Assembly (NCBI GenBank): GCA_964658305.1
Contig: OZ210884.1
Span: 310,001 to 374,000, forward strand
Reading direction: 5' to 3'
Length of the DNA: 64,000 nt
Origin: Leptogorgia sarmentosa
Taxonomy: Eukaryota
Part shown: positions 33,136 through 40,019 of the stretch, piece after piece
Position numbering within the stretch: the stretch's first letter is position 1
How the letters are laid out: every line of letters starts with the position of its first letter
Made by a program: the position numbers and the translations under genes
Notes under the pieces: generated by a model
Told to the model about the DNA's origin: nothing
Seen by the model: only the letters and a program-made list of their open reading frames with translations
Databases searched by the model: none

Positions 33136-34129
33136 AGGGCGAAAGATAAACAAAACTCGTTTACAACAATTCAACACTATGAACAAAGCCGGTAAACGGC
33201 TAATTAATATAAGAACAGTTGAAGAAGTTCGCTAAAAATTGTTCTCTAAAATGTTATTGGCTACCAAAAAAAGATCAAAATGTTGAAACAAAAAAAGAAC
33301 AGAATGTTCAAACATGTTTTAAACTTCTTTCGTCTTCGTTGTCGCATAACTAACTAAACCTATTTGCAAAGTCATTCATGTGCGTGTTATTTAACAATTA
33401 GATTACGAGCTCGAGATTTCTATTTAACAATTAGATTACGAGCTCGAGATTTCTATGAGGTGATAGTTGATGAGGGCGAAGCCCGAATCAACTATCATCT
33501 CGTAGAAATCGAGAGCGAGTAATCTAATTGTTTTAGTAGAATCAGAGATCAAACATGAAAATATTGCAAAAAATAATTTAAAAATGCGTCTCAGAAGACA
33601 TTTTCTTTAACGAAAATTCACATATTTCGCTACTCGCTATCTATCGAGGAATAGATATCGAGTAGAGTAGCCAATCAAATTGCAGCATTTGCAATAGTAT
33701 ACGAGTGTGATTCTACTAAGAGGTGATAGTTGATGAGGGCGAAGCCCGAAAAACTCAATGCAATCTTTTAAAAAAGTCGATGCAAACTTTAAAAAGTCGA
33801 TGCAAACTTTAAAAAGTCGATGCAAACTTTAAAAAGTCGATGCAAACTTTAAAAAAGCGATGCAAACTTAATAATAGAATTGTGAATGCAAACTTAAAAA
33901 TGTTGATGCATACTTTAAAAAGTCGATGCAAACAAAATAAAACGTAGATGCACACTCGTAAATGTAGTTGAGAACTTAATTAAAACTATAGATTTAACCC
34001 TGAATCTGTAATACAAAACAATATACGAAGACAGCGAGCCACTAAATTTTTAATCTTGTTTGGTGAAAGAAGACATTGCACATGCCACATATGCCATTGT
34101 AGGTCCCGTTTTAACAAATTTCAGGTGGA

Positions 34130-35621
34130 ATGTATTGTGCTTTTTGTGGAGAAATAGTAACACAAGATGGTATATGCGATGAATGTTATTCCCAGCGAAA
34201 TGTTGAACAACTAATAACGCACTATTTTCATTATGGATACCCGTATGAAGCAATTGTCGGTCTTTTAGAGAAAAAAGGTATTCACATGTGCGTGCGAACT
34301 CTGAAAAGGCGTTTACGAATTCTTGGTTTGAGAAGAAAAGGTAATGCCACAGCAATAGATAATGGTACGATCAGAGCAGCGATCCAACATGAAATGCAAG
34401 GGGCAGGAGAGCTATCGGGCTACAGAACTGTTTGGCACGCGCTACGTTTAAGACACCATATTCATGTGCCTCGCAGTTTGGTTGCTGAAATAATGAAGGA
34501 AATCGATCCCATTGGTGTAGAAGAAAGACGAGCACGAAGATTGAAGAGAAGAACATTCAATTCAAAAGGGGCAAACGCCACTTGGCACATGGACGGTAAG
34601 TGATACTAGGTATTGTGTTAACAGAACTAACATGTTTTTGGTTTTCACAGTTTCTGTACATACATCATAAATAAAATCTCACTACTGTCAACGTTCATGC
34701 CGACGATTGGTCATGCAGACCAATTCATAGGGTTAACATGTACAGGGTTTAGTTGATAAAAGATTGCAACGTTAGAAAAATGCAACTAAGGAAGACCGGG
34801 GGGAAATGGAGTGCATGGAATGAAGCCATTACTACTTGTTTATCTTCTTGTACGTGACATTTACAGGCTATGACAAACTAAAGCCGTACGGCTTTCCCGT
34901 CCATGGTGCTATTGACGGATTTAGTCGCAGGATTTTATGGCTGGAAGTAGCCCGATCTAACAACAATCCTAAAGTAGCCGCAACGTTCTATCTTAACCAA
35001 GTTAAAGAGATAAACGGATGTCCTTTACAACTAATATCTGACTGCGGCACAGAAAATGGCATTGCTGCTTCCATGCAGTGTTTCTTCCGTCGAAATGGTG
35101 ACAATGAGCTAGCAGGCGAAAAATCCCATAAGTATTGTTCATCACCTTCAAACCAACGCATAGAGGCATGGTGGTCTTTCTTAAGAAGACGTAGATCGAA
35201 CTGGTGGATAAACCTATTCAAGGACATGATTGAAAACAACATACTTGATTTGGGAAACGAATTTCATCTTGAATGTTTGTGGTTCTGCTTTTCGAGGGTT
35301 CTGCAGAATGACTTGGACAAAGTCAAAGAACATTGGAACAGCCACAAAGTTAGCAAGTCTCCTTATAGTTGTGTTCATGGGGTGCCAGATATAATGTATT
35401 TTCTGCCTGAACACCATGGACATGAAGAATGTTTGGTAGATGTGTCGCAAGAACAGATAGACGAAATGGAGGAGCATTGCCAAATACAAGAGTTAGAAGA
35501 GAATATATACCATGAATATTTTCTTTACGTGTTGGAAACAGATAATCTAGCTTATCCAAGTGATGAAGAACAAGCCTTTACGCTGTATCAAAGATTAATG
35601 GAATTACAGAACGAGAATTAA
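34130..35621 (+). CDS. DDE integrase-type transposase, 2 exons (34130-34595, 34867-35621; ~406 aa)
   Basis: GT-AG intron splits WHMDG|YDKLKPYGFPVHGAIDGFSRRILWL; ISDCGTEN; NQRIEAWW; N-terminal CxxC..CxxC and HTH-like region; frame intact after splicing. Confidence 0.85.
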
Positions 35622-39282: not shown

Positions 39283-40019
39283 TTATACTTCAATGTCAAA
39301 GTCTACACTTTTTACAAATATACAACCAGTACGAAACGTGCAATATAAAATATTGTCGCAATACGCGCGCATTGCTTCATGGGAATTACATTATTTTAGG
39401 TGTGCATCTACGTTTTATTTTGTTTGCATCGACTTTTTAAAGTATGCATCAACATTTTTAAGTTTGCATTCACAATTCTATTATTAAGTTTGCATCGCTT
39501 TTTTAAAGTTTGCATCGACTTTTTAAAGTTTGCATCGACTTTTTAAAGTTTGCATCGATTTTTTAAAGTTTGCATCGACTTTTTTAAAAGATTGCATTGA
39601 GTTTTTTAAAGTTTGCATGTCCCTTGTGGGCCATCGTAGTATACGAGTATGATTCTACTAATCCTCGATAGATAGTGAGTAGCAAAACATGTAAATTTTC
39701 GTTCAAGAAAATGTCTTCTGAGACGCGTTTTTAAATTACGTTTTGCAATATTTTCATGTTTGATCTCTGATTCTACTAAAACAATTAGATTACTCGCTCT
39801 CGATTTCTACGAGATGATAATATAATAGAAATCTCGAGCTCGTAATCTAATTGTTAATTATATTCACCGGACGGCAAAAATCTATTGTCCGGCTCGCTTC
39901 AGAATTATGTGTTTCTCCACCGGAAACTTTCAACTATGAGTTCGATCGACCATAATGCAGGTGGGTAAATCAAGGACTATTTGAAACTTCTAAATACTTT
40001 TAAGTCTTTGATGCGACTA

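Follow-up and report, generated by a model that had tools for sequence, protein, structure and literature searches.

A stretch of 64,000 nucleotides from Leptogorgia sarmentosa (the window, meaning here the whole stretch) was found to contain a DNA transposon of the IS3EU/GingerRoot type in which a DDE transposase gene (+) and a convergent HECT gene (-) are located between inverted arms. The HECT gene is almost certainly an integral second gene of the element. Co-occurrence of the two genes in related loci, complete elements and purifying selection all support this claim, which was first made in the original prediction from the letters of the window. The window copy itself is a decaying IS3EU/GingerRoot element and serves mainly as a pointer to its family. 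On balance, we lean slightly towards interpreting these elements as cut-and-paste IS3EU/GingerRoot transposons with a regular HECT ligase gene, the product of which would likely tag a host protein and so ease transposition.

Organization of the element and its two genes

The features of the element are listed in Table 1. A single pair of terminal inverted repeats (TIRs) had been thought to enclose both genes. This held for the inverted arms, which are composed of 20-bp subterminal repeats and match over 207 nt with 1 mismatch (206/207 matched; 33749-33955 and 39400-39606), but the arms are unequal and the left one lacks its outermost nucleotides. The proposed right boundary at 39638 is a true terminus: the matching of three contigs (runs X1 and X5) stops exactly there, and one X5 contig runs past it into a flank absent from the window, perhaps because it represents the opposite end of a single copy. 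At the left end of the window copy there is no adjoining target duplication, and the last 46 nt of the left host repeat occupy the place of the missing 32 nt of the TIR. The GTATAC hexamer that abuts the right end (39639-39644) recurs at 33697-33702. Therefore, the window copy was likely inserted with a 6-bp duplication and had its left end damaged afterwards, with the insertion junctions read from the window sequence only, within a flank that is a high-copy repeat.

Table 1. Coordinates of the transposon, its genes and the adjoining host repeat, given as positions in the window
Feature	Position	Strand	Remarks
Left part of palindromic host repeat	33388..33748		Insertion site of the element; repeat analysis
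GTATAC, possible left copy of 6-bp target duplication	33697..33702		46 nt from the shortened TIR; putative assignment
Left TIR	33749..33955	+	Outer 32 nt including TA terminus missing; 20-bp subterminal repeats
Transposase exon 1	34130..34595	+	CxxC..CxxC start, HTH_21-like part, first catalytic Asp at 34592-34594
Transposase intron, GT..AG, predicted	34596..34866	+	Unbroken relatives P0033, P0322
Transposase exon 2	34867..35621	+	rva_4 core, Asp at 35040-35042, Glu at 35163-35165, stop
Ligase exon 3	36285..37346	-	HECT domain, C-terminus HFNIV; Cys codon at 36393-36395; frameshift near 37202
Ligase exon 2, predicted	37718..37910	-	Low-complexity linker; splice sites and phase fit exons 1 and 3; without homology support
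High-copy palindromic MITE-like insertion	37947..38144		In ligase intron 1; depth ~30-60x that of the element
Local duplications	38140..38522		Include second partial exon 2 copy (38259-38404); repeat analysis
Ligase exon 1	38606..39282	-	Zinc ribbon, basic stretch, ubiquitin-like domain at 38621-38980; frameshift near 39000
Right TIR, complete	39400..39638	-	239 nt, TA at end
Right part of host repeat	39639..39860		Begins GTATAC

The transposase was predicted to be intact, spliced and of the IS3EU type, and all of this was borne out. The spliced product has 406 aa encoded by two exons, with no internal stop and a catalytic triad D155/D214/E255. It matches the Pfam family rva_4 (E 9e-23), and its closest named relative comes from the soft coral Dendronephthya (73% identity). 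Its N-terminus lacks the HHCC integrase motif, showing a CxxC..CxxC and HTH_21-like arrangement with no integrase zinc-domain match in Pfam. Compared by eye and without a joint tree, its motifs agree with those in the Repbase IS3EU rows of the PMC10045372 supplement, and the DDE core motifs resemble those of IS3EU-1_DR, IS3EU-1_HM and IS3EU-4_CGi. As described in PMC10045372, IS3EU elements are defined by TA..TA ends and usually by 6-bp duplications, and they are united there with GingerRoot. The window copy was filed as IS3EU/GingerRoot on its transposase and right end, both termini and the duplication being found in its complete relatives only.

The ligase gene has three predicted exons encoding a zinc ribbon, a ubiquitin-like domain and a HECT domain. 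Its ATG lies 117 nt inward of the inner edge of the right TIR, in agreement with the ~120 bp estimated originally, and the stop codons of the two genes are separated by 663 bases. Regarding its predicted domains, the HECT match is above the Pfam cut-off (E 1.2e-6) and the HTC motif is present, but the N-terminal CxxC..CxxC reached only E 0.065 against Zn_Ribbon_1, which is below the cut-off. The domain between them gave no Pfam match. Its predicted fold (pLDDT 94) retrieved mostly beta-grasp, ubiquitin-like structures (best Z 8.1, rmsd 3.0, 86 aligned). Since these Z values are middling, the putative fold class rests on agreement across the match list, and it says nothing of function. At E 0.001 this domain has 824 relatives, and among the 50 scanned some were fused to HECT, CUE, THAP or transposase domains. 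In three predicted proteins (P0447, P0385 and P0435), it occurs together with an rva_4 core, DDE_Tnp_4 or THAP, maybe through gene-calling joins.

The closest named relative of the ligase comes from Paramuricea (81% over the HECT exon), and a protein atlas search retrieved three clusters only. The reading frame is open in the relatives P0314, P0001 and L072. One of them, the intact 744-aa P0314, bears the name 'Werner syndrome ATP-dependent helicase-like 1', and it has zinc ribbon and HECT matches only, with no helicase domain.

Other features were also observed in the window. Clusters of tRNA genes flank the element (22 genes at 24517-32099 and 6 at 43542-45601). Just after a 419-copy AAC run (11031-12286) there is a single 1179-aa ORF with NACHT and LRR domains (NLR-like; 12639-16175, +). 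The region 19094-23486, in which a P2RX7_C ORF (+, 19094-19735) faces a THAP ORF (-, 20781-21245) accompanied by two more ORFs without Pfam match, is likely another DNA transposon. Finally, a 19-bp satellite with ~587 copies occupies positions 49056-59974.

Pairing of HECT and transposase genes across families

Metagenome contigs were scanned with an alignment of the HECT domain, and the best 80 of 143 matches were taken as loci. A convergent IS3EU transposase was located downstream of the HECT gene at 28 of the 38 loci where this side spans 1500 nt or more (22 of 28 for 2000 nt or more), and upstream at none of the 41 loci where that side spans 1000 nt or more. Altogether, 32 of 81 loci showed a transposase match: 31 were convergent, none was on the same strand and one was an upstream fragment (L073). 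Loci were grouped into families at 85% nucleotide identity and a family was counted as positive if any member was positive, which gave 22 positive families among the 25 with enough flank. The three families with enough flank and no transposase were L012/14/15, L036 and L040. Besides its HECT remnant, L040 has adjoining THAP, DDE_Tnp_4 and alkaline exonuclease ORFs (4978-8529), a set that is presumably ISL2EU-like. Weaker support comes from sequence clusters. The nearest transposase cluster has 11 members, 5 of which are on contigs size-matched to those of the nearest HECT cluster, for which 15 of 19 members were listed.

In related elements with termini of the same kind, the HECT gene is indeed present. 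One case is L031, a complete 5.1-kb element containing the zinc ribbon, the ubiquitin-like domain, the HECT domain and the transposase between TACGG..CCGTA ends and flanked by the duplication CTTTTT. This element is 99.9% identical to L052 over 2576 nt within different flanks, which indicates several insertion sites for the family. TA..TA termini and a 6-bp duplication are present in both L031 and L079, with the terminal motif as in the window. The latter (L079:350-3668) is a complete 3.3-kb non-autonomous derivative in which a damaged HECT gene remains and most of the transposase has been lost, with the duplication ATAATA.

Near-identical full-length ligases were also recovered from long contigs of Acropora millepora (two, 99.6%), Antennarius striatus (three) and Sinanodonta woodiana (six). 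These copies are on different chromosomes and are annotated as 'uncharacterized' or 'HECT domain' genes. With regard to non-transposon orthologues, the relatives in these records are thus dispersed near-identical copies and not single genes. The pairing is not due to chance, because it recurs at most of the informative loci and in 22 of 25 families, and because both genes are found in the complete L031; together with the dispersed copies, this contradicts a reading of the HECT gene as a chance neighbour. No relatives were found in the viral contigs scanned, and the scan of prokaryotic genomes yielded one fragment without transposase match (L081). This fragment (L081:10001-10547) shares a contig of a bacterial MAG with a reverse-transcriptase ORF and is likely animal DNA in the assembly.

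Selection, possible targets and alternative readings

The dN/dS analysis proposed for the HECT gene revealed purifying selection between diverged families. Specifically, ratios of 0.14-0.19 were obtained for 7 diverged unsaturated pairs out of 23, and the transposase gave 0.12 and 0.19 where measurable. Judged by these ratios, conservation between families is as strong for the ligase as it is for the transposase. Four near-identical HECT pairs had values of 0.44-1.81, 8 of the 23 pairs were saturated with pS far above pN, and 4 had 0-1 differences. Strong constraint between families combined with weak constraint between sister copies is the pattern of genes selected via transposition. The HECT ratios show both, and therefore fit selection through transposition, albeit with small counts.

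Co-divergence of the two genes was examined in the 23 families with both, represented by 28 loci and the window after filtering by length and excluding L073 and short hits. Ligase and transposase distances were weakly correlated (Mantel r 0.17, p 0.015). The transposases form two clades (support 100/100), which match two motif types among the Repbase IS3EU rows. The HECT tree shows five changes of transposase-clade label, at least three of them on strong branches, and rejects holding one transposase clade together (AU p 1.5e-72), a group that was defined by transposase motif, though after a first HECT tree was known. Shallow clades are common to both trees (e.g., window+L001+L003, L007+L031, L019+L061, L013+L071 and L072+L080). 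Co-phylogeny was thus recovered at shallow level, but the deep split of the transposases is not reflected in the HECT tree. From this conflict, the ligase seems to have switched between transposase lineages. A specific example is L034, the ligase of which is closely related to those of L013 and L071 (support 100/99) while the transposases are only ~24-30% identical. The N-terminal parts of the ligase also differ widely among relatives.

DDE transposases of this type bind the subterminal repeats, cut at the TA ends and insert with a 6-bp duplication. In HECT ligases, a cysteine of the C-lobe receives ubiquitin from a host E2, and the ubiquitin is then passed to a substrate. In intact copies, the ligase would draw on host E2 enzymes, its zinc ribbon and ubiquitin-like domain may select the substrate or connect to the ubiquitin system, and a host silencing or chromatin factor could serve as substrate. 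We consider it somewhat more probable that the main target is of the host than that it is the transposase. This preference comes from the fact that the ligase module pairs with transposases only ~30% alike, that its N-terminal parts vary, and that the HECT tree lacks the deep transposase split. Moreover, fungal IS3EU elements carry an alpha-kinase gene in the same facing position, opposite to the transposase, and some also carry a TET/JBP gene (PMC12730594).

Alternatively, an integral ligase might act on its own transposase, either by keeping the amount of this protein low or by removing it from the DNA once strands have been transferred. The agreement of shallow clades and the weak co-divergence would also fit a transposase target, and a 2012 meeting report (PMC3520738) contains the suggestion that captured host proteins regulate transposition. 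However, shallow matching of the trees is expected from linkage alone, and close ligases such as those of L034 and L013/L071 accompany very different transposases. We therefore regard this alternative as possible, but rather unlikely.

Less probable still is that the HECT domain, although integral to the element, is non-catalytic and acts as a decoy or scaffold for E2 enzymes, ubiquitin or chromatin. Its sequence is indeed very divergent, with Pfam and PDB sequence matches confined to the C-lobe, and G2E3 provides a precedent (PMC3673628). Against this, the predicted structure (pLDDT 92.9) aligns with HECT structures across both lobes, consistent with the bilobed C-terminal fold, and all PDB fold matches listed are HECT ligases. 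UBR5 accounts for three of the top four, at 13-15% identity and with E-values near those of other HECTs. The HTC motif aligned with that of HUWE1 and AREL1, and the catalytic Cys was kept in all 125 matches showing the motif (among 149 matches). A Phe at position -4, a residue with a role in HECT ligases, was present in 105 of 122. The ligases predicted in the intact relatives are very probably active.

An intact ligase had been implied for the window copy as well, but it has no full-length open reading frame, being broken by two frameshifts. The first, near 39000, leads to a stop at 38959-38961 and a 107-aa product, and the second lies near 37202. Contigs of run X1 carry the two breaks in the form seen in the window, and those of X4 carry the second one. 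Since these contigs are independent, assembly errors were ruled out as the source of the frameshifts. One base more was present at 39000 in X4, X5 and X6, and X5 also has eight bases more at 37202, but carries two additional bases at 38743. Ligase exons 1 and 3 are also interrupted by other deletion joints in X1, X4 and X6. In runs X8 and X9, the ligase exons were not covered, which carries no information on expression. Depth across the element in X4-X6 was low and even, as would suit a single copy of the element or a few, although contig depth does not measure copy number. Among the coding variants listed, those in the transposase were all non-synonymous (8 versus 0 synonymous), and those in the ligase were 9 non-synonymous and 8 synonymous. 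We read these small numbers as decay of the window copy without host selection.

On the other hand, if the host had domesticated the transposase of the window copy, this gene could have stayed intact while the ligase decayed. Among the variants listed, five out-of-frame indels or deletions do fall in ligase exons and a further deletion joint reaches into exon 1. In the transposase exons, the list contains only a deletion of 18 nt that keeps the frame and a single weak joint (20-letter side). The low, even depth of the element points the same way. Nevertheless, the exclusively non-synonymous transposase variants fit neutral drift and X5 shows the terminus in another flank, so that domestication appears very improbable. 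Finally, recent capture of a host HECT gene, or its enclosure between the TIRs by chance, could account for the introns of this gene and for the missing clean left end of the window copy, but has a negligible probability given the same layout over both transposase clades, the complete L031 and the dispersed copies in coral, fish and mussel.

Relation to known systems and implications

In the literature searched, no published report of a HECT-IS3EU pairing was found; Repbase, Dfam and bioRxiv supplements were outside this scope and may name a second protein. The terms 'HECT' and 'ubiquitin' are absent from the main text of PMC10045372 and PMC6839031. Repbase labels such as IS3EU-1_CGi_2p suggest that a second IS3EU protein is on record. 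The nearest parallels in organization are the fungal IS3EU elements (PMC12730594) and Intons (PMC3520738), which according to these sources likewise have a conserved extra enzyme gene opposite to the transposase. However, their extra gene encodes a kinase or a dioxygenase instead of a HECT ligase, and their hosts are fungi.

Among cellular proteins, the class IV HECT ligases described in PMC3673628 (UBR5, G2E3 and GL-Metazoa) likewise have a divergent HECT domain, and the element ligase was set beside them without a tree. Unlike these host genes, the six full-length relatives showed no PHD/RING, UBR or other host-family domain, and they keep the catalytic Cys. A link between the element ligase and the divergent class IV HECTs is offered as a lead only. 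The domain layout of G2E3 was rejected for the ligase, as no PHD/RING-like Pfam match was obtained in the six full-length relatives or in the ORFs of the window. Likewise, the name 'G2E3' was not found among the relatives in the matches listed, some of which had incomplete names. In PMC9700323, 20 G2E3 copies in a sea cucumber were interpreted as deep-sea adaptation, and transposons go unmentioned in the available text of PMC3673628. More tentatively, animal IS3EU elements may carry an ancient, swappable ligase that degrades a host silencing factor, and many divergent 'G2E3-like' HECT genes that have been taken for expanded host gene families in invertebrates and fish may be transposon genes.

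Although the window copy is broken, the pairing of ligase and transposase is real and general within a known superfamily, and it seems to have received little description so far. A second enzyme kept under selection is rare in eukaryotic cut-and-paste transposons. The finding also matters for annotation, as transposon ligase copies sit in coral, fish and mussel records as 'uncharacterized', 'HECT domain' or Werner helicase genes. For the transposon, an E3 ligase of its own would give a direct route into host protein turnover.
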